Positions 7,584 through 58,664 of a stretch of 64,000 nucleotides of DNA are shown one piece after another. The position numbers and the translations under genes were made by a program. The notes under the pieces were generated by a model. That model did no database searches, had not been told where the DNA came from, and saw nothing but the letters and a program-made list of their open reading frames with translations. The DNA lies in the NCBI GenBank assembly GCA_963789715.1, contig CAWBLQ010000004.1:286367-350366 (forward strand). The letters run 5' to 3'. Each line of letters opens with the position of its first letter. Position 1 is the stretch's first letter. This DNA comes from Candidatus Binataceae bacterium (lineage in GTDB: Bacteria; Desulfobacterota; Binatia; Binatales; Binataceae).

Positions 7584-8231
7584 ATGAGCGACATTGTCGA
7601 CCCAAAGCTGAACGGAAGCACGCCAGGGGCGATCTCAAGGCGCGACTTTATCAAGGGGGTCATCGTCGGCGGCGCGGCCGTCTCTTCTGCAGGATATCTA
7701 TTCCGCGCGTCCACGCTGCTGGCTCAATCCGGTGTCGGTGTCGCAGGTGCACGGCTGCTTACGATCAACGTCAATGGGCAGAATCGGCGCGCGGACGTTA
7801 TGAAGCAGGAGACGCTCGCATGGACGCTGCGGCATAAGCTGGGCCTCACGGGCACGAAACTGGGCTGCGACCGGGCCGAGTGCGGCTCATGCACGGTGCT
7901 GATTGACGACGTGCCCCACTACGCATGCTCCGTGCTCACGCACACGGTGCGCGACCGCAAGGTTCTGACTATCGAAGGGTTGGCGAATGCAGACGGAACT
8001 CTGCATCCGATACAGCAGGGGGTCGTCGACGAACAGGGGTTCCAATGCGCGTTCTGCATGCCCGGTTTCATCATGGCGTCGGTGGGATTCCTGAAATCGA
8101 ATCCCAACCCCACCCGGACCGAGATGGCGCAGGGCGTCTCTGGAAACCTGTGCCGCTGCCAGGACTATGACAAGATCCTCACCGCGCTGATGCGCGGGGC
8201 AGAAAATATGAGGAAGGTCAGCCATGTCTGA
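7584..8231 (+). CDS. (2Fe-2S)-binding small subunit of a xanthine dehydrogenase family enzyme, with Tat signal (PaoA/YagT-like)
   Basis: Twin-arginine motif SRRDFIKG followed by a hydrophobic stretch. GTKLGCDRAECGSCTV, QCAFCMPG and GNLCRC. Confidence 0.92.
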   Translation: MSDIVDPKLNGSTPGAISRRDFIKGVIVGGAAVSSAGYLFRASTLLAQSGVGVAGARLLTINVNGQNRRADVMKQETLAWTLRHKLGLTGTKLGCDRAECGSCTVLIDDVPHYACSVLTHTVRDRKVLTIEGLANADGTLHPIQQGVVDEQGFQCAFCMPGFIMASVGFLKSNPNPTRTEMAQGVSGNLCRCQDYDKILTALMRGAENMRKVSHV

Positions 8232-10761
8232 TAGCAAAGATGTGAATCCTGCAACGGCGCCCGAGCGCGTATACGGCGTTGGGCGCAGGCTGATCGGCAA
8301 GGATTACGCAACTCCTGACCTGTATGCGAAGGTCACGGGACAAGCGAAATATGCCGAGGACTATCACGCAGACGGCATGCTGTTTTGCAAGTTGCTTCTG
8401 AGCCCGATGCCGCATGCGCGCGTACGGGACATCGACGCCCGCGAGGCACTTGCGATGCCCGGCGTCAGAGCAATTCTTACGGCGGACGACCTCCCGCCAC
8501 CGGCCGACACTGTCACCGACAACGGCACAGTGATCAAAGCCAATCCGAAAAGCGAACGCGGGCTCACGATGGAGCCGGTGTACCAGGGCGAGCCGATCCT
8601 CGCCGTCGCCGCGGTTGACGAACTCACCGCCGCGGACGCAATCGAGAAGATTCACATCGATCTCGAGCCGCTGCCGTTCGTGATCGATCCGCTCGAGACT
8701 CTGCGGCCGGGCGGGCCGAATCCAAGAACGGACGGAAACATCTGGGTCATGCCGCGAGGATCCACGCCCGGAGTGCCACCAACTGAGCCGCCTTCCATCG
8801 GCGAGCTCAAGTGGACTGACGAGGATTTCGCGAACGCAAAGGACGGTCAATTGCCGATGGGCAAGACGCCCGACCAATGGACGTACGGCGACCTCGAAGC
8901 GGGCTTCAGGAATGCCACGCTCATCCTGGACGAAACGTTCGTGACACCGGACACCAGCCACCAGACGCTCGAAACGCGCAGCGCGATGGCCTACTGGCAG
9001 AATGGCAAGGTCTTCGTTTACACGGGCACCCAGAGCACCGCGCAAACCGTGCCTGCGATCGCACGATGGCTGAATATCGACCGCGGCAAAGTCGTGCTGA
9101 TCAGCGAATACACCGGCGGCGGCTTCGGCAGCAAAGTCACGGCCGGTGTGTCTTTGATCATCCCTGCGCTGCTGTCAAAGAAGGCGAACGCGCCGGTGAT
9201 GATGCGCATCAGTCGCGAGGAGGAGACTTTCATCGGCCGCGCGCGGCCCAGTCTCATGGGTCGGATGAAAGCCGGTTTCTCCAGGGAGGGACGGATCGTA
9301 GCCCTCGATATGTTCGTTATTTCCAACAACGGCCCCTACGACGCGCAAGGCGATGTCCCCACATCCGGCCGAATCGTTTCACTGTTGTATCAGCCGGAGG
9401 CGATGCGCTGGCGCGGAGCGACAATCCTTACGAACACTCCGCCCCGCAGCGCGCAGAGTTCACCAGGCGGCTTGCAGGGCATCATGATTATCGAACCGAT
9501 TATCGCAAAGGCCGCGCGCAAGCTCGGGCTCGACCAGGTGGCGATCAGGCGCATCAACTGTCCTGAAGGCAAGGCGCCATTCGGCGCACCGATCAATGGA
9601 ACGCGACTGCATGCGACCAGCGCGTTTCTGAAGGACGCCCTGGATCGTGGCGCGGAGCAATTCAAATGGCAGGAGCGGGTGGCGCGCACTCCGAAACGGA
9701 TCGGCTCGAAGGTGCGCGGTGTTGGCGTCTCGCTCAGCTGTTTCGTCGGCGGCACGATCGGCTTCGATGGGCTGCTTATCATCAAGCCCGATGGCCGCGT
9801 CACTTTTCAGTCGGGAATCGGCAACCTGGGAACTGAGTCGGTGATCGACGTCCACCGCGCCGGTGCGGAAGTTCTTGGTGTGCCATGGGAAAAGTGCGAC
9901 GTCGTCTGGGGCAACACTGCCAGCAACCTTCCGTTCACCTGCGTATCCGGCGGCAGCCAGACGACGCACGCGATGACGCGCGCCGCGTACGCTACCGCAA
10001 TGGATGCGAGGAAGAAGCTGCAGGAGATCGCGGCGAAGAGCCTCGGCGGCGGACCAGAGGAATACGAAGTCGCCAACGAGCGCGTCTTCCGCAGGGGCGA
10101 TGGCCGCGGCATGACATTGGCGCAGGCGGCTCAACGCGCTATTCAACTCGGCGGCATCTACGACGGCCACGAAGCGGCGCCTGAGCTGCACAAATTGACG
10201 AAAGCCTCCGTCGCGGCGGTCGCGGGCCATGGGCTGGTGGCGGCGGCCAAAGATAACTATCCGCGCGACGGCCAGACGTTTTCCTATGTAGCGAGCTTCG
10301 CCGAAGTCGAGGTTGATGTCGAGACAGGCAAGTATGACATCGTGGACTTCCTCGCATATGCCGACGTTGGCTCGGTGATTCATCCGCGCCCGCTCGGCGG
10401 CGAGGTGCTCGGCCGCTCAGTTCTGGGTATGGGCCATGCGATCGGCCAGAAGTGGGTCTACGACCCCCACTACGGCGCGATGCTTTCGACGCGATTTTAC
10501 CAGAACAAGCCTCCGACGATTCTGGATGTGCCGGTAAATATGCAATGGGCGGCGCTCGATATTCCCGATCCGGAAACGCCGGTGGGCGCGCGAGGCGTGG
10601 GTGAGCCGCCGGTTGGCGGCGGATGCGCCTCTATCCTGAATGCGCTGTCGGATGCGCTCGGAGACGAAATCTTTCGGCGCGCACCGGTCAACCTGGACAC
10701 CATCCTGACCTCGCTCGAAGCCGGACGTCCGATGCAACATCCGCTGATGGCTTACATTTAA
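8224..10761 (+). CDS. Xanthine dehydrogenase family molybdopterin-binding subunit
   Basis: AKVTGQAKYAED, GGGFGSK, VSGGSQTT, SFAEVEVDVETG and catalytic GARGVGEP. Overlaps the upstream gene by 8 nt. Confidence 0.92.
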   Translation: MSDSKDVNPATAPERVYGVGRRLIGKDYATPDLYAKVTGQAKYAEDYHADGMLFCKLLLSPMPHARVRDIDAREALAMPGVRAILTADDLPPPADTVTDNGTVIKANPKSERGLTMEPVYQGEPILAVAAVDELTAADAIEKIHIDLEPLPFVIDPLETLRPGGPNPRTDGNIWVMPRGSTPGVPPTEPPSIGELKWTDEDFANAKDGQLPMGKTPDQWTYGDLEAGFRNATLILDETFVTPDTSHQTLETRSAMAYWQNGKVFVYTGTQSTAQTVPAIARWLNIDRGKVVLISEYTGGGFGSKVTAGVSLIIPALLSKKANAPVMMRISREEETFIGRARPSLMGRMKAGFSREGRIVALDMFVISNNGPYDAQGDVPTSGRIVSLLYQPEAMRWRGATILTNTPPRSAQSSPGGLQGIMIIEPIIAKAARKLGLDQVAIRRINCPEGKAPFGAPINGTRLHATSAFLKDALDRGAEQFKWQERVARTPKRIGSKVRGVGVSLSCFVGGTIGFDGLLIIKPDGRVTFQSGIGNLGTESVIDVHRAGAEVLGVPWEKCDVVWGNTASNLPFTCVSGGSQTTHAMTRAAYATAMDARKKLQEIAAKSLGGGPEEYEVANERVFRRGDGRGMTLAQAAQRAIQLGGIYDGHEAAPELHKLTKASVAAVAGHGLVAAAKDNYPRDGQTFSYVASFAEVEVDVETGKYDIVDFLAYADVGSVIHPRPLGGEVLGRSVLGMGHAIGQKWVYDPHYGAMLSTRFYQNKPPTILDVPVNMQWAALDIPDPETPVGARGVGEPPVGGGCASILNALSDALGDEIFRRAPVNLDTILTSLEAGRPMQHPLMAYI

Positions 10762-10773
10762 TTGGAGAGAGTT

Positions 10774-11785
10774 ATGGCTGTAATCCGGGATGTCATGCCG
10801 TCATTCGAGCTGCTTCAGCCAAACTCCATCGCCGAAGCGCAGCGGCTGCTCGAACAGAACGGAAGCGACGGCTGGGCGCTCGCTGGAGGCCTCGACAGAC
10901 TGGCTCAAAGATCGCATCAAGAGACCGAAAACGGTTATCGACTTGAGCGGGGTCGAGGAACTCAAAGGAATACGCGCCACCAGCGATGGCGTCGAGATTG
11001 GCGCGATGACCACTCTGACCGAAATCGTGCAGCATCCCGTGATTCGAGAGAAGTACGGTCTGCTGGTGGCTAGCGCGGAGTTAGTGGCCTCACCGCAAAT
11101 CCGGAACCAGGGCACCATCGGCGGCAACCTATCGCAGGACGCTCGATGCTGGTACTACCGCGCCGGTTGGCCCTGCTATCGCGCGGGAGGAAACATCTGT
11201 TATGCCGACACACCTGAGGGCCGCAATCGCGAGCACGCGATTCTGCACGCGGATCGTTGCGTCGCGGTTAATCCTTCGGACACTGCCCCAGCACTAATCG
11301 CGCTCGACGCCAAATTCGCGATCAGCACACGCAAAGGTGACCGCGTCGTGGATGCGGAAGATTATTTTATCGGTCCGGACATCGATATTACGCGGCTGCA
11401 CATCTTGCAGCCCGGCGATCTGCTGACGGCAATTCGAATTCCGTCCACCTGGGCTGGTGCGAAATTTTATTTTGAGAAGGTACGGGACCGGAACGTGTGG
11501 GACTTCCCGCTGCTGAACGTCGCGTCGGCTATGACTCTATCCGGCGGCAGGATTCAGGGAATCCGCATTGCGGTGAACGCTGCCGCCGCTCGTCCGCTTC
11601 GGTTGAAGGCTGTCGAAAGCGCAGTGTACGGCATGCCGCCGAACGCTGACACCGGGGAGATAGCGGGGAAGCTGGCGGTCGAAGGCGCGATCCCGCTGCA
11701 ATTCAACGCCTACAAGATTCCGCTGATGAGAAACCTGGTGAAGCGCGCTATCTGCGGAGTGGAGCAAGCGACATGGGTTTCCTAG
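10774..11785 (+). pseudogene. FAD-binding subunit of the xanthine dehydrogenase family (PaoB/YagS-like), interrupted by a frameshift at about 10894-10900 (mutation or assembly error)
   Basis: RBS GGAG then ATG at 10774 gives MAVIRDVMPSFELLQP...ALAGGLD in frame 1. The continuation DWLKDRIKRPKTVIDLS...SPQIRNQGTIGGNLSQDARCWYYR...CYRAGGNIC...C is in frame 2. The sequence at the join is CTC GAC AG AC TGG. Confidence 0.85.
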
Positions 11786-12630
11786 AGTGGGCAATAGATC
11801 CTTGGGGGCTGAACGTTCCCATTCACATCGCGTGGTTCCTGATATGGGTAGCGGTGATTGCAGGGCTCGCCTTCTTCGTAGTTCACGCGACCTATCTGAG
11901 GTACTTCGCCAAGCCGCGGCAGTTTGCGCCGGAAATTCCGCATCAAGACCCGTCCGCGATACCAGCACGCGTGCCGCGGCACTCGCACGTCGCGCGCGTG
12001 TTCCACTGGATAATGGCGGCCGCTATGTTGACGCTGCTGTTTACGGCCTTCCTTCCCAAGGTGGGCGTCCAGTTTAACTGGGTGACTTACCATTGGATTG
12101 CAGGCACGGTGCTGACCTTGTCGATTCTCTTTCACATCTTCCACGCGTCGTTCTGGCTGGACTTCTGGTCGATCTGGCCCGACAGAATCGACATGACGGA
12201 CGCCTACCACAGAGTTATCCGGTTTGTAGGACAGCCGGCTCCCCCGCCCAGGAAGTTCGCAAAGTATCCGCTGGAGAACAAACTCTATCATGGCGCAATC
12301 ATCGTGGCCGGCCTGTCCGCAATCGTCACCGGCGTCTTCATGATGTTTCGCGTGCGCACGATCTTCTTTGTCCGCAATCCATATCTATTCAGCGATATGA
12401 CCTGGGGCATGATCTACGTGCTGCACGGTCTGGCGGGTGTAGGACTGATCGCGTTGATCATGGTGCATGTCTATTTCGGGATTCGCCCCGAGAAACGCCA
12501 GATCACCAAGTCGATGATCTTCGGCTGGATGAGTCGCGAGTTTTATCTGGAAGAGCACGATCCCGGGCGATGGGTTGTTGGTCCCTCGAATGCGGCGCAG
12601 CCGGTCGTTGGTTCCAAGGGTGAGGACTGA
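11773..12630 (+). CDS. Cytochrome b/b6-domain membrane protein (FdnI-like)
   Basis: About 5 TM segments with His in helices: ARVFHW, YHWIAG, LFHIFH, KLYHG, VLHGLAG, IMVHVY. Overlaps the FAD-subunit stop. Confidence 0.82.
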   Translation: MGFLEWAIDPWGLNVPIHIAWFLIWVAVIAGLAFFVVHATYLRYFAKPRQFAPEIPHQDPSAIPARVPRHSHVARVFHWIMAAAMLTLLFTAFLPKVGVQFNWVTYHWIAGTVLTLSILFHIFHASFWLDFWSIWPDRIDMTDAYHRVIRFVGQPAPPPRKFAKYPLENKLYHGAIIVAGLSAIVTGVFMMFRVRTIFFVRNPYLFSDMTWGMIYVLHGLAGVGLIALIMVHVYFGIRPEKRQITKSMIFGWMSREFYLEEHDPGRWVVGPSNAAQPVVGSKGED

Positions 12631-29831: not shown

Positions 29832-31802
29832 TTATGCCGCCTGCCGGCGTCGAAGGACTCCTGACAGTCTCCGCGCGCCGTCTGGCGGGCGATGAGGCTC
29901 AGGCGCACGGCCGGCGGTCTCACGCCGAGGCAACAGCCGCGCCGAATTCATAATGAAGGTCAGCTCCGACGCAACGTGGATGAACGCCGCGAGCGGAGGA
30001 CTCAGCAATCCGATTGCGGCAAGTGCGATTCCGACCGAATCGACGGCGATCGTGCCGACGAAATTCTGGACAACAATCCTCCGGGTCCATCGCGCGATCG
30101 CCAAAGTCTCGCCAAACTTCTCGAGATCGTTGCCGAGCAGCAGCACGTCGGCACTCTCGCGAGCGACATCCGTGCCCGAACCCATCGCGACGCCAACGCT
30201 GGCTTCGGCCAACGCCGGCGCATCGTTGATCCCGTCGCCGACCATCGCGACCACGCGCCCGCTTGCCACCAGGCTCTTGATCCGCGCAAGCTTCATCTCG
30301 GGCAGCAGGCTGGCCTCGACCGCGCCGATACCGAGCGCCTCCGCAACGCTGCGCGCCACCGGTTCGGCGTCGCCGGTCAAAAGAACCGTGCTGATTCCCA
30401 TACGGTCGAATGTTTCGACCGCGTGCTTCGCCTCGGGCCGGATCGCATCGGCGACGACGATCGTGCCAAGGAACCGCCCTGTGCGCGCGACGAAGACTGC
30501 GGACGTCGTCTCGAGGTCCGCGGCGCTGGACACGTTCACGCCCCGCTCGGCCATCAGTGCGCGAGTTCCGACCACGATCGTCGCGCCATTCACAACAGCG
30601 GTGATACCCCGTCCGGGCTGGTAGTCGAACCGATCAGGCTCCTGAACGATTCGACCCTCCGCCAGCGCGTGCGTGACAATCGCTTTGCCCAAAGGATGCT
30701 CAGAGCGTACTTCTGCGGACGCGGCCGCATCGATCACCTCCGTCACCGACGCGCCGTCGGCCGGAATCACCCTGGTGACCTCGGGTCGGCCAAAGGTGAG
30801 CGTGCCGGTCTTATCGAGCACAACCGTGTCCACCCGGCCCAGCGTCTCGAGATAGAGACCACCCTTGATGATCGCGCCCAGGCGCGCGCAGCGACCGATG
30901 CCGCCAAGAATCGCCAGCGGAGTTCCAGCCGCGATTCCGCAAGCGCCGGCTACGATAATGACCGCGATGGTCGAGCGCGTGTCGCGCGTGATCGCGAACG
31001 TCAGTACGGCAGCCGTCAATGCGAAGTACACCAGGTAACCGGCCAACCGATCGGCGAGGCGTTGCACCGGGGCCTGCGAGCGTTGCGCGTGCTCGACCGC
31101 CTCGATGATTTTCCCGTAGCTGGTGTCGCGCCCAATTCGATCCGCGCGTATTTCCAGCGCGCCCGATTGGTTGATCGTGCCGGCGTAGGCGATCGATCCT
31201 GGAAGCTTCTCGGCCGCCATCCATTCACCGCTGATTCGAGATTCATCGACGAATGAATGGCCGCCGATCACCACGCCATCCACGGGCACCTGTGCGCCCG
31301 GGTTGACGAGCACTGAATCGCCAACTCTCAGCTCGTCGGCCGAAATCTCGCGTCCTCCATCGGCGCGGCGCACGGTCACGGTGCGCGGAATGAAATCCAG
31401 CAAATCACGGATCGCGCGTCGGCCGCGGGAAACCGTCATTCCCTCCAGCACCTCGGCCACCAGCACGAACAGCGTGATGATGAGCGCGGTGAAGTACTCG
31501 GAGATCGCGGCGGCGGCGACGATCGCGATTGCCATCGACAATTCCATCGTCATCCGGCGCGCGGCCACATGCTCGAACGCCTCTTTGAAGATTGGCCAGC
31601 CTCCGACCAAGACGCCCGCAATGCCGATGACGCTGACGCCCGGCAACGGCTCCCAGACGTGAAGCCGCACGGCGACGGCTGCCAGCGCAACCGCGACAAT
31701 TCGAACCACTTCGATCCGCCGGAAACTCGACGCGCCCTCGTGCTCGTCAGTCCCGATGGAGTCAGCTTGCTCTGCGCGTTCGCTCGGTTCCATTCGCGAC
31801 AC
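29832..31802 (-). CDS. Heavy-metal-translocating P1B-type ATPase with non-canonical intramembrane ACG motif
   Basis: DKTGTLT phosphorylation site, SEHP, MLTGD-like LLTGD and MVGDGINDAPAL. SGE replaces TGE, IIVAGACG replaces CPC, and there is no N-terminal metal-binding domain. Confidence 0.92.
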   Translation of the reverse strand: MSRMEPSERAEQADSIGTDEHEGASSFRRIEVVRIVAVALAAVAVRLHVWEPLPGVSVIGIAGVLVGGWPIFKEAFEHVAARRMTMELSMAIAIVAAAAISEYFTALIITLFVLVAEVLEGMTVSRGRRAIRDLLDFIPRTVTVRRADGGREISADELRVGDSVLVNPGAQVPVDGVVIGGHSFVDESRISGEWMAAEKLPGSIAYAGTINQSGALEIRADRIGRDTSYGKIIEAVEHAQRSQAPVQRLADRLAGYLVYFALTAAVLTFAITRDTRSTIAVIIVAGACGIAAGTPLAILGGIGRCARLGAIIKGGLYLETLGRVDTVVLDKTGTLTFGRPEVTRVIPADGASVTEVIDAAASAEVRSEHPLGKAIVTHALAEGRIVQEPDRFDYQPGRGITAVVNGATIVVGTRALMAERGVNVSSAADLETTSAVFVARTGRFLGTIVVADAIRPEAKHAVETFDRMGISTVLLTGDAEPVARSVAEALGIGAVEASLLPEMKLARIKSLVASGRVVAMVGDGINDAPALAEASVGVAMGSGTDVARESADVLLLGNDLEKFGETLAIARWTRRIVVQNFVGTIAVDSVGIALAAIGLLSPPLAAFIHVASELTFIMNSARLLPRRETAGRAPEPHRPPDGARRLSGVLRRRQAA

Positions 31803-33445: not shown

Positions 33446-34156
33446 TCAGGTTGGAAGGTAGCGAGCGATGTATCCGCCGAGCGCGGTGGTCACCAGCACG
33501 TACGGATGCGAGGTCAAGAGTTTCGCGGCCAGGCGCGGGGTCATGTCGGGGCGAATTGTTTGCGGAGCGGGATTCATCGCGGCTAGTGCGCGCGGCGCGG
33601 AGCCGGATTGTTCGAACGAGCCAAGCAGGACTCCGCCCGGAGTGAGCACGACGGCGCGCGGGGTTGGCGAACCGGGCGAGGCCGGCGGGACCGGGTCTTC
33701 GGGGGCGAGGCGGGCGAGGTCGTCGCGCGTGAACTCGGAGACGCGCACGCGGTCCGAATAGCGAATCCAGAATGCACGCAGGCCGGGCGCCAGGTTGTTA
33801 ACGAAATAGCGAAGCGCGCGGACCCGCTCTGAGAGTGGTGCGGGAGGATCGGTCGGCAATCCGCGGACGATCCAATCGGCCTTGCCGCGAAAGTAATGAC
33901 GGACTTCGGTGAACCCCAGTAGCTCGAGCTGCGCCGCAGCCCGCGCACTGAGGTCTCACAAGGAATCGCGGCAATAGACGACGACTGGACGTTCGCGGTC
34001 GAGCGACGCGGGCGCGTCGCGCAGGATGCGGCCGAGCGGAACGTGAAGAGCATCGCGGATGTGGGCGGCGTTGTACTCGTGAGCCGGAAGGACGTCGACG
34101 ATTTGCGCGCCGAGCGCGCGCAACTTTGCAAGCTCTCGATGCTGAATCTCGCGCAC
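33446..34156 (-). CDS. Predicted selenoprotein: rhodanese domain with C-x4-U loop plus degenerate CBS-like C-terminal domain, 236 aa, Sec67
   Basis: GTG start 4 nt after the upstream stop. IVDVLPAHEYNAAHIRDALHVPL...VVVYCRDSL[TGA]DLSARAAAQLELLGFTEVRHYFRGKADW stays in frame to TGA at 33448-33446. The rhodanese fold needs the sequence after the TGA. A SECIS-like hairpin follows the TGA directly. Confidence 0.8.
33911..33955 (-). promoter_or_regulatory. Candidate bacterial SECIS element
   Basis: Immediately 3' of the UGA: GACCUCAGU pairs with ACUGGGGUU, and GGGCUGC pairs with GCAGCUC, closing a 3-nt GGC apical loop that begins 20 nt after the UGA. Confidence 0.72.
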
Positions 34157-34160
34157 CCGA

Positions 34161-35525
34161 CTACGAGCGCATCGCGGCGAGCGCGGCCAGCGCGGTCTTG
34201 ACCATCGTCTCGCCGCTGCCGGCCGCAATTCGCGCGGTATCGACTTCATAACCACCCTCGGCGTAGGCGGCGCGGGTGGGAATGTAACCGATCAGATCGT
34301 TGCAGTAGCCGGCGACATAAGTATGCGCGAAGTGCGCGGTTGCCTTCAGCGCGAGACCGAGCTCGACGAAGAGTTCGCCGGGGATGCCAACGATAGCAAG
34401 ATTGCCGACAGTGACGAGGGTCATCGCGGTGGCGAGATCGCGGCGCGTCAGATCAACGCGGCGGTCGCGGCGATTTTGCTCCTCGAGGGCTTCCAGAGCG
34501 CTCAGCGCCGCGCGGGACTGTGTGTGGTGGTCGCGCAGGCGCTTCAACTGGTAGCCGCCGCCGCCGCGATGGTTGTCGAGCGAGGCCTGGGTCTGGGCGG
34601 CGCAATCGCGCGCGATGGCGAGGTCGGCGCTCAGATCTTTGAGTTCGAGGTTTAGCGCGATCCTGCGCACGGCGATCCTGGCGTCGGCGACAGAGGGCGC
34701 GCGCGCGAGCGCGTCGAAGGCGCTGCGGCCCATCGCGCGCCCGTATTGCTCCGCGACTTCGAAGTTACCGCGGCTGCGGGGATCGATGTTGCCGGTCGCG
34801 CCTTGGAGGAAAATCGAGATTGGGCGCGAGCCCGCCGCGGAGCTGGCCGCGGTTTCGATTTCGTCCATCGCGAAGCCGGGCCAGTCGCGCGAGTAGAGCA
34901 GGTTGTCTTCGCACAGCACGACGCCGTGGCATGGATAATTCATGATGAACGCGAGCGGACTTCCGTCCGGGCGGTACGCGCCGAGCGCCTGGACTTCAGC
35001 GTCGGCCGGGCCCAGCCGGTTAGCGGCAAGTTGGATCTGCCGGTTCGGGCGCATCAGGCGGCGATTGATTCCCAGCGTGAATGGAGCGGTGGCGGCGCGA
35101 AGCGTCGCGGGTTCGAGATTCTCGTGCGCCTGGATAATCGCGGCGGCGATTTTTTCGGGCAGCGCGCGCTCCCATTCGAGGTCGCGGCCGTCGGCGGGTT
35201 TCGCATCGGCGCGCGGAGTCGCGAAGATGTTGAAGGCGGGCGCAGAATGGGTGTGAGTGGCGCAAATCAGAATCGAATCGGCGGGGATGCCGGCGACGGC
35301 GGAGGCGCGCTCGCGGATGTCGTCGGCGATGCGACTCCCGAGCGCGAGCAGATCGACGCCGGCGATGGCGACCTTCGCGTCGCCGTCGCCGAGCACGAGC
35401 GCTTGCGCGGCGAGGTCGTCGTGCACGCCCTGGTTGCGGCCGACACGGCCGCCGTACCCGAGCATCACGAGGCCCGCGGGCGGATCGAGCTTGACGCGCG
35501 CGGCGCCGGCGTAGAGTGGACTCAT
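34161..35525 (-). CDS. Neutral/alkaline ceramidase-like amidohydrolase
   Basis: MLGYGGR, VHDDLAAQAL, ICATHTHSAP, NYPCHG, YSRDWPG, FLQGATGNI, IPGELF and GYCNDLIGYIPT. ATGA overlap with the upstream gene. Confidence 0.75.
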   Translation of the reverse strand: MSPLYAGAARVKLDPPAGLVMLGYGGRVGRNQGVHDDLAAQALVLGDGDAKVAIAGVDLLALGSRIADDIRERASAVAGIPADSILICATHTHSAPAFNIFATPRADAKPADGRDLEWERALPEKIAAAIIQAHENLEPATLRAATAPFTLGINRRLMRPNRQIQLAANRLGPADAEVQALGAYRPDGSPLAFIMNYPCHGVVLCEDNLLYSRDWPGFAMDEIETAASSAAGSRPISIFLQGATGNIDPRSRGNFEVAEQYGRAMGRSAFDALARAPSVADARIAVRRIALNLELKDLSADLAIARDCAAQTQASLDNHRGGGGYQLKRLRDHHTQSRAALSALEALEEQNRRDRRVDLTRRDLATAMTLVTVGNLAIVGIPGELFVELGLALKATAHFAHTYVAGYCNDLIGYIPTRAAYAEGGYEVDTARIAAGSGETMVKTALAALAAMRS

Positions 35526-36772
35526 GTCAGTTTGGTTCCGGCGAGATCGGCGGCTCTGGAAGCCACTTTGGCGGCTGCGGCGGCGATGTCGTCGAGGTCG
35601 CGGTCGTCGCCGAGCAGGCATTCGTGCGGGATCGAGACGAGCGCGTGCTCGAACAGGCGTTCAGCGACCGGGCAATCGATCGCGACAGTATCGGGGTTTG
35701 CGCCGGCGAGTTCGCATGCTTTGCGATAAGCCGCCGACTCGCGCGGGAAGAGCGCGGATCGATAGACGGGATCGTTGGCGACGCCGCATGGGATGCCTTC
35801 GGCGCGAAGGGCGCGGACGAACCGGTTGCGCGAAAGGCCGAGCGCGGATTCGTCGACGAGAAAGACAAATGCGTAGATGACTTCGCGCGTGACGCGCGGA
35901 TCGCGCGCGACGGGCGTCAGCCCCTTGATGGCGCCGAGTTCTGCGCGCAGGCGCGCGGCGGCGCGGCTCTTGCGCTCGATCTGTTCGGGCAGGCGCGCGA
36001 GTTGCGCGAGCAGAATTCCGCATTGCCATTCCGTCATCCGGTAGTTCGCGCCCATCAGCGGGCCTTCGAAGTTGTCGCCGGGGCGGCGGCGTCCGCAATT
36101 GATGAGCGACTGGCATCGCTGCTCGAGGTCGGGGTCGTCGGTCGTGATCATGCCACCTTCGCCCGCCGTCATCGGCTTGGAAGATTGAAAACTGAAGCAG
36201 CCGAGAGCGCCGTGAGTACCGACGCCGCGATCGCGGAATCGAGCACCCGGGACGTGGGCGCAATCCTCGACCAGCGCAATCGAATGCGCGCGCGAAATGT
36301 CGGCGAGTGCGTCGAGGTCGGCGAGCGAGGCGCCGTAGTGGACGGGGATGATGGCTTTGGTGCGGCGGGTGATCAGGCGCTTGACGGATTCGGGATCGAT
36401 GCACGCGTCGGCGGCGCTGACGTCGGCAAAGACGGGACGCGCCATGCATGCGACGGCGGCATAGGGAGTCGCGGCGAAAGTGATCGCGGGAACGATGACC
36501 TCGTCGCCGGCGCCGATGCCGAGTGCTTTGAGTGCGACCTCGAGCGCGCTGGTGCCGGAAGTCGTCGGGATGGCGAAGCGAGCGCCGTGATACGCGGCGA
36601 ATGCGGCGGCGAACTCGGCGGCCTTGCGATTAGGGCTGGGATAGCCGCCCCAGCTGGCCGAGGTGAGGACGTCGTCGAGTTGCGTGCGCTCGCGGTCGTC
36701 GAAGACGGGCCACGTGGGGAAGGGGCGGGTGCGAAGGGGCTCGCCGCCGAGGATTGCGAGTGAGGAGGGCAT
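35522..36772 (-). CDS. DegT/DnrJ/EryC1/StrS PLP aminotransferase (aminocyclitol/AHBA-synthase-like N-terminus)
   Basis: LAILGGEP, TSGTSAL, EDCAH, FSFQSSKPMTAGEGG (PLP lysine) and NYRMTEWQ. Confidence 0.92.
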   Translation of the reverse strand: MPSSLAILGGEPLRTRPFPTWPVFDDRERTQLDDVLTSASWGGYPSPNRKAAEFAAAFAAYHGARFAIPTTSGTSALEVALKALGIGAGDEVIVPAITFAATPYAAVACMARPVFADVSAADACIDPESVKRLITRRTKAIIPVHYGASLADLDALADISRAHSIALVEDCAHVPGARFRDRGVGTHGALGCFSFQSSKPMTAGEGGMITTDDPDLEQRCQSLINCGRRRPGDNFEGPLMGANYRMTEWQCGILLAQLARLPEQIERKSRAAARLRAELGAIKGLTPVARDPRVTREVIYAFVFLVDESALGLSRNRFVRALRAEGIPCGVANDPVYRSALFPRESAAYRKACELAGANPDTVAIDCPVAERLFEHALVSIPHECLLGDDRDLDDIAAAAAKVASRAADLAGTKLT

Positions 36773-52025: not shown

Positions 52026-52492
52026 TCGCTCTGCGCGATCGCCGGCACGGCGAATTCTTTCAGCGCGGCGGGCAGATTGTGGCTCGGCACCTCTGCGTCG
52101 CCCATCTTCGCCAGCGCGAATCGTTCGTCGCCGTCCAGCCGCGACCAGACCGCAGCGCTCAGATCGAAGCCCGCCGCGCGCGCGTGCGCCACTGCTCGAG
52201 CCGGCGGCGACGCGGGCGGCTCCGCCGCGGCTCGTTGCGCATCGGTGAGGCTCTTCGGCTCGACGCCGAAGCGGCGCTTCATCGCCTCGCGGATGAACAC
52301 TCCGAGCCCGTCGCATTCCTCGGCGGAATCGACGGGGAGATGACAGATCGCGAGCCGCTCGCCGCGGTCGAGCGATTTCCATTGCTCGAGCCCGATTTTC
52401 AGGCCGACCCGATCGAGCTTGCGCCGCACCGCCATAGGGACGCACTGCAGACTTTCGTGCATCTCGTCTTCAAACTTGAATTTGCGAATCAT
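52007..52492 (-). CDS. Nitrate-reductase-associated protein family (Nitr_red_assoc-like)
   Basis: FKFEDEMHESLQCVPMAVRRKLDRVGLKIGLEQW and WSRLDGDERFALAK...SHNLPAALKEF. Confidence 0.78.
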   Translation of the reverse strand: MIRKFKFEDEMHESLQCVPMAVRRKLDRVGLKIGLEQWKSLDRGERLAICHLPVDSAEECDGLGVFIREAMKRRFGVEPKSLTDAQRAAAEPPASPPARAVAHARAAGFDLSAAVWSRLDGDERFALAKMGDAEVPSHNLPAALKEFAVPAIAQSDQPRAK

Positions 52493-52629
52493 TTGAACCT
52501 CCGGCCCGCGCGCAACTGTCAGGTTGCAATATGCAACCGGGCGGATCAAGATCGCCGGCCACGCGGCGCCGGCGATGGGTCCGTGTTTGCCAGCATCAAT
52601 CGTGGTATAGCGATTCCATAGTGTCTGCG

Positions 52630-53136
52630 ATGGACGCAAGCAATTCCAGAAATGGCGGCGCCGCCTGGGACGCGCGGGTGATTGACGAAATCGTCGCCGG
52701 CCTGGCCGACAAGCCCGGTGCGCTGATGCCGGTGCTGCACGCGGTGCAGGAGCGCATCGGTTACATACCGCCGGACGCGGTGCCGGCGATTGCGCGAGCG
52801 CTGAATCTTTCGCGCGCCGAGGTCCACGGAGTCATCAGCTTCTATCACGATTTCCACAGCGAGCGGCGTGGGCGAAAAATCATTCGCGTCTGCCGCGCCG
52901 AGTCGTGCCAGGCGATGGGCGCGGATGCGCTCGCGGCGCATATTCAAGCGCGCCTTGGAATTGATTTCGGGCAGACCAGCGGCAACGGCGACTTCACGCT
53001 CGAGCCGGTCTATTGTCTCGGCAACTGCGCGTGCTCGCCGGCGATCGTGGTCGGCGACGATCTGCACGGCCGCGTCACACCCGCGCGCTTCGACGAAATC
53101 CTGTCGGGGGTCGCCTCGACGAGGCAGCCGCGATGA
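52630..53136 (+). CDS. fdsG: NAD-dependent formate dehydrogenase gamma subunit (NuoE-like, 2Fe-2S)
   Basis: LMPVLHAVQE, SRAEVHGVISFYHDF, CRAESCQAMG and VYCLGNCACSP. Confidence 0.92.
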   Translation: MDASNSRNGGAAWDARVIDEIVAGLADKPGALMPVLHAVQERIGYIPPDAVPAIARALNLSRAEVHGVISFYHDFHSERRGRKIIRVCRAESCQAMGADALAAHIQARLGIDFGQTSGNGDFTLEPVYCLGNCACSPAIVVGDDLHGRVTPARFDEILSGVASTRQPR

Positions 53137-54749
53137 CTGCCGTCGTGTACGTTCCCCGCGATTCGAGCGCGGTGTCGCTCGGGGCGGACGTGGTGGCCGA
53201 GGCGATTCGAAGTGAAGCGGCGGCGCGCAGGCTGGACCTAAAGATCGTGCGCAACGGTTCGCGCGGGATGTTCTCGCATGAGCCGATGGTCGAGGTCGCG
53301 TCCGGCGCCGGGCGGATCGCGTACGGGCCGGTCGCGGCTGGCGACGTAGCATCGCTGTTCGATTCGAACTTTCTCGACGGCCGCGAGCATCGCCTGCGGC
53401 TCGGCGTCGCCGGGGAGATCCCCTGGCTCAAGTCGCAGACTCGCCTCACGTTCGCGCGCATGGGCGTGATCGATCCCGTCTCGCTCGACGACTTCGTCGC
53501 GCACGGCGGATATCGCGGGCTGACGCGCGCGATCGAGCTCGGTGCCGACGCGATTGTTGCCGAGGTCACGCAGTCCGGTCTTCGCGGGCGTGGCGGCGCG
53601 GGATTTCCGACCGGCATCAAGTGGAAGGCCGCGTTGGATGCGCCGGCGATGCCGAAGTATGTCGTCTGCAACGCCGACGAAGGCGATTCCGGCACCTTTT
53701 CCGACCGCATGATCATGGAGGGAGATCCCTTCGAGCTGATCGAAGGGATGACTATCGCGGCGCTCGCCGTTGGCGCGACGCAAGGCTACATCTACCTTCG
53801 ATCTGAGTATCCGCACGCGCGTCGCGCACTCAGCGAAGCGATCGCGACTGCCTATTCGAATGGCTATTTGGGCGCGAACGTTGTTGGTACCGGCAAATCG
53901 TTCGAGCTTGAGATTCGGCTTGGCGCGGGCGCGTACATCTGCGGCGAAGAGACTGCGATGCTCGAAAGCATCGAGGGCCGCCGCGGGATGGTTCGCTTCA
54001 AGCCGCCGATTCCCGCGCTGGAAGGGCTGTTCGGCAAGCCGACGGTGATCAACAACGTGGTCTCGTTCGCGACCGTTCCGATCGTCATCGAGCGCGGTGC
54101 GGAATTTTTCCGCGACTACGGCGCCGGCAACTCGCGCGGCACGATACCGTTCCAGCTCGCCGGCAACGCCAAACGCCCGGGGCTGATCGAAACGTCGATG
54201 GGCGTGACGCTTCGCGAAATCGTCCACGACTACGGCGCCGGCACCGCCAGCGGCAAGCCGCTTCGCGCCGTGCAGGTGGGCGGACCACTGGGCGCGTATT
54301 TCCCCGAATCGATGCTCGACGTGGCGCTGGACTTTGAATCGATCGCGGCGCGGGGCGGAATCCTGGGCCACGGCGGAATCGTCGTCTTCGACGAGACGGT
54401 CGACATGGCGCGGATGGCGCGCTACGCGATGGAATTTTGCGCGATCGAATCGTGCGGAAAGTGCACGCCGTGCCGAATCGGATCGATTCGCGGCGCCGAG
54501 CTGATCGACGATATTGTCAATCGGCGCCGACCGCGCGAGAATCTCGAGGTGCTTCGCGATCTGTGCGACACGATGAAGTTCGGCTCGCTGTGCGCGCTCG
54601 GGGGTCTGACGCCGTTGCCGGTTTTGAGTGCGCTCAAATATTTTCCCGGGGACTTCGGTCTAACGCCGCGCGACGTTGACTTCATCGGCGCGGACTTGCC
54701 GCTCTCGCCGCCAGGAGCCGGCTCCAGCCATGCGATCGCGGAGCGATAA
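53133..54749 (+). CDS. fdsB: NAD-dependent formate dehydrogenase beta subunit (NuoF-like, FMN/4Fe-4S)
   Basis: RNGSRG, GLRGRGGAGFPTGIKW, CNADEGDSG, GAYICGEETA and ESCGKCTPCRIG...SLCALG. ATGA overlap with fdsG. Confidence 0.93.
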   Translation: MTAVVYVPRDSSAVSLGADVVAEAIRSEAAARRLDLKIVRNGSRGMFSHEPMVEVASGAGRIAYGPVAAGDVASLFDSNFLDGREHRLRLGVAGEIPWLKSQTRLTFARMGVIDPVSLDDFVAHGGYRGLTRAIELGADAIVAEVTQSGLRGRGGAGFPTGIKWKAALDAPAMPKYVVCNADEGDSGTFSDRMIMEGDPFELIEGMTIAALAVGATQGYIYLRSEYPHARRALSEAIATAYSNGYLGANVVGTGKSFELEIRLGAGAYICGEETAMLESIEGRRGMVRFKPPIPALEGLFGKPTVINNVVSFATVPIVIERGAEFFRDYGAGNSRGTIPFQLAGNAKRPGLIETSMGVTLREIVHDYGAGTASGKPLRAVQVGGPLGAYFPESMLDVALDFESIAARGGILGHGGIVVFDETVDMARMARYAMEFCAIESCGKCTPCRIGSIRGAELIDDIVNRRRPRENLEVLRDLCDTMKFGSLCALGGLTPLPVLSALKYFPGDFGLTPRDVDFIGADLPLSPPGAGSSHAIAER

Positions 54750-57700
54750 CGATCTTGCCACACCGCTGCGCCGCGGCGCGCAAGCCGTCGCGCTGGAGAT
54801 CGACGGACGCGTCGTAGCCGTGCCCGAAGGGACCTCGGTGATTCGCGCGGCCGCCGAGGCCGGCATCCACGTTCCGAAATTGTGCGCGACGGATTCGCTG
54901 GAACCGTTCGGGTCGTGCCGTTTGTGCCTGGTCGAGATAGACGGCCAGCGCGGCTACCCGGCGTCATGCACCACTCCGGTGCGGGCCGGGATGAAGGTGC
55001 GCACCGAGAGTCCCGCGCTCGCGCGGCTACGGCGCGGCGTGATGGAGCTGTACATTTCCGATCACCCGCTGGACTGCCTGACCTGTCCCGCCAACGGAAA
55101 TTGCGAGCTCCAGGACATGGCGGGCGCGGTGGGCCTGCGCGAAGTGCGCTACCGGAGCGGCGGCGCCAACCATCTGCACGCGGAGAAGGATCAATCGAAT
55201 CCGTATTTCACTTTCGATCCTTCGAAATGCATCGTGTGCTCGCGATGCGTCCGCGCGTGCGAAGAAGTCCAGGGCACTTTCGCACTGACGATCGACGGGC
55301 GCGGATTTTCATCGGTGATTTCGCCGGGACAAAACGGCCGGTTCTCGGCGTCCGAGTGCGTTTCGTGCGGCGCCTGCGTGCAGGCGTGTCCCACGGCGAC
55401 GCTGATGGAAAAATCGGTCGTCGAACTCGGCCAGCCCGATCACAGCGTCGTCACGACCTGCGGCTACTGCGGCGTCGGATGCTCGTTCAGGGCCGAGATG
55501 AAGGGCGACCTGGTCGCGCGAATGGTTCCGAATCCGGACGGGCACGCCAATCACGGCCACTCGTGCGTCAAGGGCCGCTTCGCGTGGGGCTACACGACGC
55601 ATCCGGATCGCGTCACGCGCCCGCTGATTCGCAAGTCGATCGACCAGCCGTGGCGCGAGGTCTCGTGGCGCGACGCGATCGAATACGCCGCGTCGGAGCT
55701 CAAGCGCATCCAGCAACAGCATGGGCGCGGCGCGGTCGGCGCGATTACGTCCTCGCGATGCACCAACGAGGAAACTTTTCTCGTGCAGAAACTGGTGCGC
55801 GCCGCGTTCGGCAACAACAACGTCGACACCTGCGCGCGCGTCTGTCATTCGCCCACCGGCTACGGACTGAAGACCGCGTTCGGCACCTCGGCGACGACCC
55901 AGGATTTCGATTCGGTGATGCAGGCCGACGTGATCATGGTGATCGGCGCCAACGTCACCGAGGGGCATCCGGTGTTCGCGGCGCAGATGAAGCGTCGAAT
56001 CCGGGACGGCGCCAAACTTATCGTCGTCGATCCCCGCGTCACTGAAATCGTGCGGCTGCCGCATGTGCAGGCGTCGTATCACTTGCAGCTCCGGCCCGGC
56101 ACCAACGTCGCGCTGATCAACGCGCTCGCGCACGTGATCGTGACGGAAGGACTCACCGACGAGGCTTTCGCGGCCGCGCGATGCGATCCGCATGAATACG
56201 AGGCGTGGAAGAAGTTCGTCGCGGAGCCGCGCAATTCTCCGGAGTCGACGGAGACGACAACCGGTGTGCCCGCCGACCAGGTTCGCGCGGCGGCGCGCCT
56301 GTATGCCACCGCGCCCAACGGCGCGATCTACTATGGCCTGGGAGTCACCGAGCACAGCCAGGGCAGCACGATGGTGCTGGGCATCGCGAATCTCGCGATG
56401 GCGACCGGCAACATCGGCCGGTCGGGAGTCGGCGTCAATCCTCTGCGCGGCCAGAACAACGTGCAAGGCTCGTGCGACATGGGTTCGTTCCCGCACGAGT
56501 TCAGCGGCTATCGCCACATTTCCGATACTGAGGTGCGCGCGAGTTTCGATGCCGCGTGGGGCGTGCATATCGATCCCGAACCGGGCCTGCGGATTCCCAA
56601 CATGTTCGATGCGGCGCTGGACGGCAGCTTCAAGGGTCTCTACGTACAGGGCGAAGACGTCGCGCAATCCGAGCCGAACGGTCATCACGTCGCGGCGGCG
56701 CTGTGCGCGATGGAATGCGTGGTGGTGCAGGACTTGTTTTTCAACGAGACTGTGAAGTACGCGCACGTCTTTCTGCCCGGCTCGTCGTTCCTCGAAAAAA
56801 ACGGCACCTTCACCAACAGCGAGCGGCGAATCTCGATGGTGCGCAAGGTCGCGGCGCCGCTCGCTGGCAAGGAAGACTGGCAAATTACCTGCGAGCTTGC
56901 GACCGCGCTCGGCTATCCGATGAAGTATTCGCATCCGTCGGAGATCATGGACGAGATAGCGCTGCTGACTCCCACTTTTTCCGGCGTCAGCTACCGGACG
57001 CTCGAGCGGCTCGGCTCCGTCCAATGGCCGTGCAACGACGGCGCGCCCGCCGGCACTCCGACCATGCATGCCGATCACTTCGTGCGCGGCAAAGGCAGGT
57101 TCACGATTACCGAGTATGTACCTACTGAGGAACGCACCAATTCCGAGTATCCTCTGATACTGACTACTGGCCGAATACTTAGTCAATATAATGTTGGTAC
57201 CCAGACGCGGCGCACGCTGAATGCCGCGATGCACGCCGAGGATCGCCTCGAGATACATCCGAGCGACGCCGAACTGCGCGGCATCCGCGACGGCGACTGG
57301 CTCCGGGTGCAGGCGCGCCGTGGCGAGACGCGCTTGCGCGCGCTGCTGACCGAACGCGTCCAGCCCGGGGTCGTGTACACCACGTTCCATCATCCGGAGT
57401 CGCGCACCAACGATTTGATGACCGAGCACTCCGATTGGGCGACCAACTGTCCCGAGTTCAAGGTCACCGCCGTGCAGGTCGCGCCGGAGCGCGGCGGCAA
57501 CGGACGCTCGGAAACATATGCGAAGACTCTGGAAGCTGTTCAAGCTGCTGACGCTATCGATATTCATCATCTCGTCATGATGGCTAACGATATCGGCGCG
57601 TACTTCGCCGGTTATCCGGATCAGGACGAAGCCGTCGAGGGTGTCGCGAACCATCTGCGCAATTTCTGGGAAGCTCGGATGCGCCGCGAGATTGTTGACT

Positions 57701-57804
57701 ACGTGGCCAAGGGCGGCGATGAGCTGAGTCCGCTGGTGCGCGAAGCGGTTGTCTTCATTGCGACCGAGTCCGTCCCCGATTCGGAAGAAGTTGGCGAGGG
57801 ATGA
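54730..57804 (+). CDS. fdsA: NAD-dependent formate dehydrogenase alpha subunit (Cys-ligated Mo) with C-terminally fused delta subunit (FdsD)
   Basis: IPKLC...GSCRLC, HPLDCLTC, CIVCSRCVRAC, CGYCGVGC, HSCVKG, CARVCH and RGQNNVQG. The C-terminal LVMMANDIGAYF...AVEGVANHLRNFWEARMR is FdsD-like. Confidence 0.92.
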   Translation: MRSRSDNDLATPLRRGAQAVALEIDGRVVAVPEGTSVIRAAAEAGIHVPKLCATDSLEPFGSCRLCLVEIDGQRGYPASCTTPVRAGMKVRTESPALARLRRGVMELYISDHPLDCLTCPANGNCELQDMAGAVGLREVRYRSGGANHLHAEKDQSNPYFTFDPSKCIVCSRCVRACEEVQGTFALTIDGRGFSSVISPGQNGRFSASECVSCGACVQACPTATLMEKSVVELGQPDHSVVTTCGYCGVGCSFRAEMKGDLVARMVPNPDGHANHGHSCVKGRFAWGYTTHPDRVTRPLIRKSIDQPWREVSWRDAIEYAASELKRIQQQHGRGAVGAITSSRCTNEETFLVQKLVRAAFGNNNVDTCARVCHSPTGYGLKTAFGTSATTQDFDSVMQADVIMVIGANVTEGHPVFAAQMKRRIRDGAKLIVVDPRVTEIVRLPHVQASYHLQLRPGTNVALINALAHVIVTEGLTDEAFAAARCDPHEYEAWKKFVAEPRNSPESTETTTGVPADQVRAAARLYATAPNGAIYYGLGVTEHSQGSTMVLGIANLAMATGNIGRSGVGVNPLRGQNNVQGSCDMGSFPHEFSGYRHISDTEVRASFDAAWGVHIDPEPGLRIPNMFDAALDGSFKGLYVQGEDVAQSEPNGHHVAAALCAMECVVVQDLFFNETVKYAHVFLPGSSFLEKNGTFTNSERRISMVRKVAAPLAGKEDWQITCELATALGYPMKYSHPSEIMDEIALLTPTFSGVSYRTLERLGSVQWPCNDGAPAGTPTMHADHFVRGKGRFTITEYVPTEERTNSEYPLILTTGRILSQYNVGTQTRRTLNAAMHAEDRLEIHPSDAELRGIRDGDWLRVQARRGETRLRALLTERVQPGVVYTTFHHPESRTNDLMTEHSDWATNCPEFKVTAVQVAPERGGNGRSETYAKTLEAVQAADAIDIHHLVMMANDIGAYFAGYPDQDEAVEGVANHLRNFWEARMRREIVDYVAKGGDELSPLVREAVVFIATESVPDSEEVGEG

Positions 57805-58664
57805 AAACCGATTCCGCACACATCCGGACTGGTGACGATCCGGCCGCGGTCTCTGCCGGCGAAATCCGCGAGCATCGCGCGCTCAGATGGCACGGTGGCA
57901 GGACTTCCGAGCGCATCGAAAAGCTCGCGGTCGAAGAGCCGCTCGAGATTCGGCTCGCCGGCCGCCGTTTCACGCTCACGATGCGCACCCCCGGACACGA
58001 CGAGGAACTGGCCGCCGGCTTTCTGTTTGCCGAGGGTTTCATAGATGACGCGAGCGAGCTCGACGAGATTCGGCGCGTGCGCGGGCGCAAGGGTGCGTTC
58101 GAACCGAACGCCATCGACGTCATTCTGAACGTGCCCGCCGACGGACTGCGAAGCCGCCTCAAGCGCAACTTCGTGATGAGCTCGAGCTGCGGCGTATGCG
58201 GCAAAACCAGCATCGACTCGATTCGGCGCCGCGTCGCACCCGCCTCGGATTCCGCACGCGTCGCGCCGGCCACTCTGCTCGCGCTGTCGGAGCGGCTCCG
58301 CGCCGGCCAACGCGTCTTTGCGGCGACGGGCGGACTCCACGGCGCCGCGATTTTCAGGCTCGACGGTGCGATGCTCGCGATACGCGAGGATGTCGGGCGT
58401 CACAACGCGGTCGACAAAGTGATCGGATACGCGCTGACGAATGCGATGGTCCCGCTGGCGCATCATCTGATGATGGTCAGCGGGCGGCTCAGCTTCGAGA
58501 TCGTGCAGAAGGCCGCGGCAGCCGGCGTGCCGATTCTCGCCGCCGTGTCGGCGCCGTCGTCGCTGGCGGTGGAGCTGGCCGCGGAGCTCGGCACGACGCT
58601 CGTCGGCTTCCTGCGCGACGGCAGCTTCAACATCTACACGCGCCCCGACCGCATCGCGCCGTGA
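57801..58664 (+). CDS. fdhD: Formate dehydrogenase accessory sulfurtransferase (FdhD/FdsC)
   Basis: VEEPLEI, MRTPG, SSSCGVCGK, TGGLHGAA, EDVGRHNAVDK and SGRLSFEIVQKA. Confidence 0.95.
   Translation: MKTDSAHIRTGDDPAAVSAGEIREHRALRWHGGRTSERIEKLAVEEPLEIRLAGRRFTLTMRTPGHDEELAAGFLFAEGFIDDASELDEIRRVRGRKGAFEPNAIDVILNVPADGLRSRLKRNFVMSSSCGVCGKTSIDSIRRRVAPASDSARVAPATLLALSERLRAGQRVFAATGGLHGAAIFRLDGAMLAIREDVGRHNAVDKVIGYALTNAMVPLAHHLMMVSGRLSFEIVQKAAAAGVPILAAVSAPSSLAVELAAELGTTLVGFLRDGSFNIYTRPDRIAP

Follow-up and report, generated by a model that had tools for sequence, protein, structure and literature searches.

The first report of rhodanese-like selenoproteins came from the Sargasso Sea metagenome (PMC1088965), and a 2026 inventory lists five forms with the selenocysteine (Sec, U) motifs UxxS (form 1), UxxG (form 2), CxU (form 3, NF041203 rhodanese_LYCAU), UxxG (form 4) and UxxxxU (form 5, TsoB, NF045694) (PMC13188914). 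The putative selenoprotein described here is encoded in a 64,000-nucleotide stretch of DNA from a Candidatus Binataceae bacterium (hereafter the window). It shares with the known forms the rhodanese fold and a Sec in or beside the active-site loop, but it keeps the catalytic Cys, with its predicted Sec in second place (C-x4-U), and has a CBS-like C-terminal domain fused to it. Retention of the catalytic Cys also separates it from the UxxG forms, while TsoB has the same five-residue spacing (U-x4-U versus C-x4-U) and a DsbD part that the window protein lacks. Neither curated model recovered it at its cut-off: NF041203 (form 3) scored 21.1 bits against a cut-off of 115, the window motif being VYCRDSLU, and NF045694 (form 5) scored 23.2 bits against 805. 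The residues U-D-L-S fit the UxxS of form 1 (exemplar WP_010941598.1), a form compared by motif only. The best match in both sequence and structure was BH2092 of Bacillus halodurans (PDB 3O3W, 3NHV), which has the same enlarged loop and a second Cys at the Sec position (C-x4-C; YCWGPAC versus YCRDSLU) but carries Cys rather than Sec, has no CBS domain and is likewise uncharacterised in function.

In Escherichia coli fdhF, the essential bases of the SECIS loop are G23 and U24. The hairpin studied here resembles SECIS elements of the fdhF/fdnG type in being a coding-region stem-loop directly after the UGA, with a small loop that starts with G followed by G or U; its loop occupies positions 24-26 (U of UGA = 1), close to the fdhF bases. 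It differs in having a stem without a bulged U, in the GGC triloop found in Binataceae, and in a 19-nt core that is almost invariant across a family-level clade because a conserved peptide is also encoded there. More generally, the bacterial SECIS consensus (that of bSECISearch, by Zhang and Gladyshev) has a loop of 3-9 nt, an upper stem of 4-16 bp, a UGA-to-loop distance of 16-37 nt, a G at loop position 1 or 2 (mostly G, then G or U) and an MFE <= -7.5 (PMC13188914). The initial annotation of this DNA had cited an apical-loop G at 16-37 nt from the UGA as the consensus, in agreement with that review, and the hairpin fits it.

Our data make it very probable that the hairpin is a functional bacterial SECIS of a rhodanese-CBS selenoprotein gene, at which SelB and Sec-tRNA(Sec) would decode UGA67; SelB binding and Sec insertion are what we infer from the comparisons below. 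Literature searches returned no paper linking selenoproteins with Binatota or with Candidatus Binatus/Binataceae, an uncultured lineage, and none combining rhodanese, CBS, selenoprotein and Actinobacteria; rhodanese goes unmentioned in the deep-Sep and BSepDB papers.

A rhodanese-CBS gene with an in-frame UGA

On the minus strand, the codons leading into the site are TAT TGC CGC GAT TCC TTG, followed by TGA and then by GAC CTC AGT GCG CGG GCT GCG GCG CAG CTC GAG CTA CTG GGG TTC (Table 1). The frame stays open before and after the TGA, giving a read-through product of 236 residues, and homologues begin at the same residues (VREIQ/MREIR). A Pfam Rhodanese match (PF00581) spans the TGA, covering residues 40-126 of the read-through product at 50 bits against a cut-off of 22.2, and the C-terminal half is CBS-like according to precomputed PF00571 matches in relatives. 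In alignments with rhodaneses of solved structure, Cys62 falls on the active-site Cys, and codon 67 lies at the end of the enlarged rhodanese active-site loop; the AlphaFold model (pLDDT 79) of a Cys homologue with 81% identity has structural matches in the rhodaneses 3HIX and 3NHV. The upstream ceramidase-like gene and the putative selenoprotein gene are probably co-transcribed.

Table 1. Features of the rhodanese-CBS locus, in window coordinates
Feature	Position	Strand	Details and basis
Putative rhodanese + CBS-like selenoprotein gene	34156..33446	minus	236 codons, GTG start at 34156, predicted Sec = codon 67; read-through translation
In-frame UGA, putatively read as selenocysteine (U67)	33958-33956	minus	inside the rhodanese domain; TGA/TGC at the same codon in orthologues
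Cys62 codon, canonical rhodanese catalytic cysteine	33971..33973	minus	five residues before the predicted Sec (C-R-D-S-L-U)
Full hairpin, including 9-bp lower stem	33955..33911	minus	starts directly after the UGA, lower stem lineage-specific; folding
Conserved core of the putative SECIS	33943..33925	minus	8-bp stem (33943-33936 with 33932-33925), GGC apical loop (33935-33933); also encodes R-A-A-A-Q-L
Neutral-ceramidase-like gene	34161..35621	minus	upstream, ends 4 nt before the GTG start; Pfam Ceramidase_alk

Of 33 genes in the window, 18 end in UGA, more than in any other stop codon, and the genetic code is thus standard. No further in-frame TGA with convincing flanking coding sequence was found in the window, the others being gene ends or lying in antisense frames. 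SelA, SelB and SelD motif scans and ARAGORN found no selA, selB, selD or tRNA-Sec in the 64-kb window or the fetched flanks (133 loci), and NCBIfam annotation of about 50 window ORFs returned no sel gene; one 'GCG*K' motif match, in locus L035, was noise, being antisense to a dehydrogenase gene. The neighbouring genes in the window are housekeeping-like, and a P-type ATPase gene (29832-31802) lies 1.6 kb downstream.

Elsewhere in the window, an NAD-linked formate dehydrogenase operon (52531-58664, plus strand) comprises gamma, NuoF-like beta, 1042-residue alpha and FdhD genes; the alpha subunit was considered as a second selenoprotein and ruled out, as it has no in-frame TGA. ARAGORN called a 93-nt tRNA-Ser(GCU) at 52186-52278 (plus strand) with 77% G+C, a weak D arm and mismatches in the acceptor and anticodon stems, while Rfam found no tRNA there even at E <= 1; the call is probably a false positive. 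On the plus strand, 7584-12630 holds a cluster encoding the small, large and FAD subunits of a molybdenum enzyme of the xanthine-dehydrogenase/4-hydroxybenzoyl-CoA-reductase type and, after them, a cytochrome-b-like gene.

Protein searches in Candidatus Binatus and related genomes returned two populations: full-length proteins of about 236 residues carrying Cys at the Sec position (YCRDCLCDLSARAAAQLE), and numerous fragments, roughly 158 residues long and bearing the label 'hypothetical' or 'CBS domain-containing', that start just past the hairpin. At the nucleotide level, codon 67 is TGA in 43 of 53 loci from species-representative Binataceae genomes and TGC in the other 10; adding the window gives 44 TGA sequences among 54. 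The TGA is retained across 41-82% protein identity with the same gene neighbours, and among 80 metagenome loci 65 carry TGA and 14 TGC, with one more (L074) also TGC. In a neighbour-joining tree, the TGC sequences form at least three lineages that sit among those with TGA. Gene order is conserved as DegT aminotransferase, ceramidase-like, rhodanese-CBS gene, a convergent GNAT and then ACPS, with the ceramidase-like gene directly upstream in 42 of the 53 Binataceae loci.

The TGA/TGC call is consistent across short-read assemblies. At seven loci (L021, L028, L031, L032, L046, L049 and L053; long-read MAG), the ceramidase-like or DegT neighbours align only piecewise, which suggests frameshift errors in those assemblies. 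The two kinds of sequence also tend to differ at codon 65 (window 33962-33964): Sec forms mostly have Ser two residues before Sec (YCRDSLU at 88 loci versus YCRDCLU at 10), whereas in most Cys forms this residue is a third Cys (YCRDCLC at 15 versus YCRDSLC at 8). This difference may reflect functional compensation.

Stability and conservation of the hairpin

The initial annotation had placed a SECIS-like hairpin directly after the UGA on the minus strand, and its letters and coordinates proved correct (Table 1). The RNAfold structure has a lower stem that leads through a small internal loop into an upper stem capped by a GGC triloop, reproducing the 3-nt loop that had been located 20 nt after the UGA; the upper stem, also present as described, is 8 bp long rather than the 7 bp first counted. 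The MFE of 57 nt is -33.5 kcal/mol, compared with -20.8 +/- 3.2 in dinucleotide shuffles (z -4.0, 0/200). For the 54 nt from the TGA, it is -30.5 kcal/mol against -17.2 +/- 3.0 in synonymous-codon resamples (z -4.4), in which amino acids were held fixed and codons drawn from the window's codon usage; none of 5000 resamples was as stable, so the comparison with synonymous codons that had been put forward as a check came out in favour of the hairpin. The 24-nt core alone (-12.9 kcal/mol) was equalled in 81 of 5000 such resamples. The hairpin motif is single-copy within the 64-kb window, which rules out a repeat element; no terminator or promoter was predicted at the site, and those readings were also set aside. 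Rfam gave no match at gathering thresholds in the window, with only chance-level matches around the site.

Measured against the consensus, the loop is 3 nt (GGC) and the stem 8 bp, with 3- or 5-nt loops and stems of 7-8 bp in distant relatives. The loop reads GGC in the window and in 43 of the 44 Binataceae TGA sequences, the exception (L023) being GAC. UGA-to-loop spacing is 20 nt (positions 4-23), in an identical register in 53 of 53 aligned TGA loci, and the energies of the 24-nt core and of the 54 nt both lie below the consensus limit. The gene itself has an in-frame UGA aligned with Cys in homologues and coding conservation on either side, as expected for a selenoprotein gene.

Folding energy of the whole region is alike in TGA and TGC orthologues (synonymous-resampling z -1.68 versus -1.69), so the stability test is not decisive by itself; it is conservation at the nucleotide level that discriminates. 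The upper stem and loop (C16-G34) hardly vary among the 44 TGA sequences, and RNAalifold retains only that helix. Codons of the stem and loop are fixed in TGA sequences as GCT (43/44), GCG (43/43), GCG (43/43), CAG (44/44) and CTC (43/44), with a codon entropy of about 0, compared with 1.2-1.9 bits at other conserved Ala columns of the gene; across the genes of the window, only 6% of Ala codons are GCT. The Arg codon at the stem entry is CGA or CGG, both of which pair with U32 (one sequence has AGA); CGC, which predominates among Arg codons in the rest of the rhodanese-CBS gene, never occurs there. The amino acids R-A-A-x-x-L are themselves conserved, and the sequence conservation is therefore partly protein-level.

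This constraint follows the TGA. Among genome loci, 8 of 10 TGC sequences depart from the core, compared with 6 of 44 TGA sequences, which carry single changes, two of them G-U wobbles; among metagenome loci, the core is exact in 62 of 65 with TGA versus 2 of 14 with TGC. By parsimony on a tree built from flanking coding sequence, core changes number 7 over a branch length of 7.38 with TGA and 8 over 0.93 with TGC, a rate about ninefold higher, and by our binomial estimate the chance of so uneven a split is about 7e-5.

The lower stem fared differently. The 9 bp originally described are present in the window fold, but they are not conserved: with the core fixed and only the flanks resampled, z is -3.3 for the window but has a mean of -0.1 among the 44 TGA sequences. 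These 9 bp are peculiar to the window's lineage. Its pairs show no covariation beyond shuffled controls; one apparent covarying column (15/48; C-G 9, G-C 8, 23 unpaired) was rejected when shuffles gave the same values. Compensatory changes within Binataceae are absent because the conserved stem is nearly invariant. Covariation among orthologues, to which the initial annotation had looked for support, is thus lacking in the family, and one compensatory pair appears once distant relatives are added.

Relatives beyond Binataceae

The part of the protein after the TGA was searched against 1.84 billion cluster representatives. Close relatives were few; distant proteins of about 160 residues begin 1-2 residues past the Sec position, and full-length distant Cys forms carry YC..x.CDLSARAAWRLE. 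A profile of the fragments matched 4623 database proteins, and the best 120 of these are almost all labelled 'CBS domain-containing protein', are 150-180 residues long and in some cases are labelled Actinomycetota or Mycobacteriales. None of the retrieved database homologues contains U, and in NCBI and JGI records the pieces appear as separate genes.

Among distinct distant split loci, which come from other phyla (L134-L145), nine of nine consist of a 54-79 residue rhodanese ORF ending in TGA, one codon, and then a CBS ORF. Judged by this arrangement, the TGA of the nine distant loci is predicted to be the same Sec codon. Hairpins at these loci lie in the same register (CG[A/G]GCCG(C)...(G)CGGCUCG), with loops of GUG, GGC or CGUGC and stems of 7-8 bp. 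Pair 21-29 is C-G in all nine distant loci versus U-A in Binataceae, a compensatory double change. Pairing holds in 97.8% of stem cells across 51 sequences, and 0 of 500 shuffles reached the observed pairing or covariation score. The change at pair 21-29 is probably one evolutionary event between two clades and is therefore supporting, not strong, covariation evidence. Core decay, with mismatches and loops that do not begin with G, is seen in three distant Cys forms that are independent of one another, one from Nonomuraea and two from metagenome lineages.

The second codon after the TGA is ATG (U-D-M-S) in eight of the nine distant TGA loci (L134-L138, L142, L143 and L145), while this codon encodes Leu in the Cys forms examined (C-D-L-S) and is CTC in the window (33950-33952) and most Binataceae. 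The ATG could relate to UGA context, to hairpin flanks or to a fail-safe for reinitiation. Some full-length homologues predicted by JGI have Trp at the Sec position (P0120, P0216, P0218, P0219, P0230, P0232, P0256, P0271 and P0277), one of which (P0216, YCHDYQWDMS) matches TGA locus L134; the Trp probably arises from a gene caller translating TGA under another genetic code. Outside Binataceae, neighbouring genes (L135, L136, L138-L140, L142 and L143) encode MerR/ArsR regulators, thioredoxin-like and HMA-domain proteins, heavy-metal P-type ATPases or cation-efflux proteins, a neighbourhood that hints at a role in metal or redox stress.

The Sec rhodanese-CBS architecture appears to reach far beyond Binataceae, and the fragments (P0298-P0450 among them) would represent systematic mis-annotation.

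Proposed decoding of UGA67, alternatives and significance

In the proposed mechanism, the stem-loop 12 nt downstream of UGA67 would presumably be bound by SelB carrying Sec-tRNA(Sec), its 8-bp stem presenting the apical loop G24-G25-C26, and Sec would be brought into the A site against competition from release factor 2. Thereafter the hairpin would be melted and translated as R-A-A-A-Q-L, so that 19 nt may carry two codes at once. In the protein, Sec67 would be the probable partner of Cys62: five residues past the catalytic Cys, it appears well placed for persulfide resolution, for a selenenylsulfide or for binding a soft metal together with Cys62.

On one rival reading, the gene is decaying and its TGA arose by nonsense mutation or sequencing error, with the hairpin a chance G+C-rich palindrome arising from an Ala-rich peptide. 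The genome is indeed 62% G+C, the RAAAQL peptide is conserved in Cys forms too, and total MFE is alike in TGA and TGC loci. However, more than 100 independent assemblies, obtained from different species and on different sequencing platforms, share this TGA, conservation of frame and protein extends past it in both directions, synonymous sites are constrained down to a rare codon, and none of the 5000 synonymous resamples was as stable as the window hairpin, so that this explanation is scarcely credible. The initial annotation had favoured recoding over a nonsense mutation, a view borne out by a UGA conserved in 44 of 54 Binataceae sequences and aligned with Cys in the remaining 10, and by synonymous constraint tied to the TGA. 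Alternatively, UGA67 may be a real stop that separates a 66-residue rhodanese fragment from an independently initiated CBS protein, with the hairpin serving translational coupling or regulation. Public gene callers annotate precisely such a split, and an ATG stands two codons past the TGA in eight of nine distant TGA loci, but a stop here would cut the rhodanese fold in its active-site loop, and Cys orthologues are single continuous proteins. Moreover, the codon two past the TGA in the window and most Binataceae is CTC, which is no start, the first in-frame start in the window being a TTG at 33859, 32 codons past the TGA; decay of the hairpin upon change from TGA to TGC would also go unexplained. 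We regard termination at UGA67 as very improbable.

Slightly less improbable, but still highly unlikely, is that the hairpin helps to recode UGA67 as an amino acid other than Sec, for example as Cys by a tRNA-Sec-like tRNA(Cys) and a SelB-like factor, or as Trp or Cys by near-cognate read-through that the structure stimulates. Systems with a tRNA-Sec-like tRNA(Cys) are known in some bacteria, Sec machinery is absent from the window and the fetched flanks, and the Cys orthologues indicate that Cys is functionally acceptable at the site. Against this, the hairpin fits a SelB-type SECIS in its loop, its spacing and its G-G/U loop bases, and TGA has been kept over large divergence with TGC one step away, which suggests that UGA offers something that Cys does not.

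Insertion of Sec at UGA67 is thus the reading we prefer, and the hairpin is most likely an ordinary SECIS in a probably uncurated form of rhodanese selenoprotein. More tentatively, and with slightly more doubt than conviction, we propose that the protein may belong to an undescribed, widespread selenoprotein family. This would be a sixth rhodanese form combining rhodanese and CBS domains with a C-x4-U motif in which Sec partners the retained catalytic Cys, occurring in Binataceae and many Actinomycetota-like genomes, often beside MerR/ArsR regulators, thioredoxins and heavy-metal ATPases. In public databases its members would be split systematically into a rhodanese fragment of 54-79 residues and a 'CBS domain-containing protein', and its SECIS would be near-invariant since a conserved helix is also encoded there.

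With the in-frame TGA read as a recoded codon and not as the mark of a broken gene, the 67- and approximately 160-residue public gene calls should be merged as one selenoprotein, and the finding points to many mis-annotated relatives (4623 profile matches). The same 19 nt, frozen with UGA and decaying with UGC, amount to a natural experiment and thus offer a useful benchmark for SECIS and selenoprotein predictors. The C-x4-U loop and the metal and redox neighbourhood of relatives suggest a role in sulfur, selenium or metal stress chemistry.
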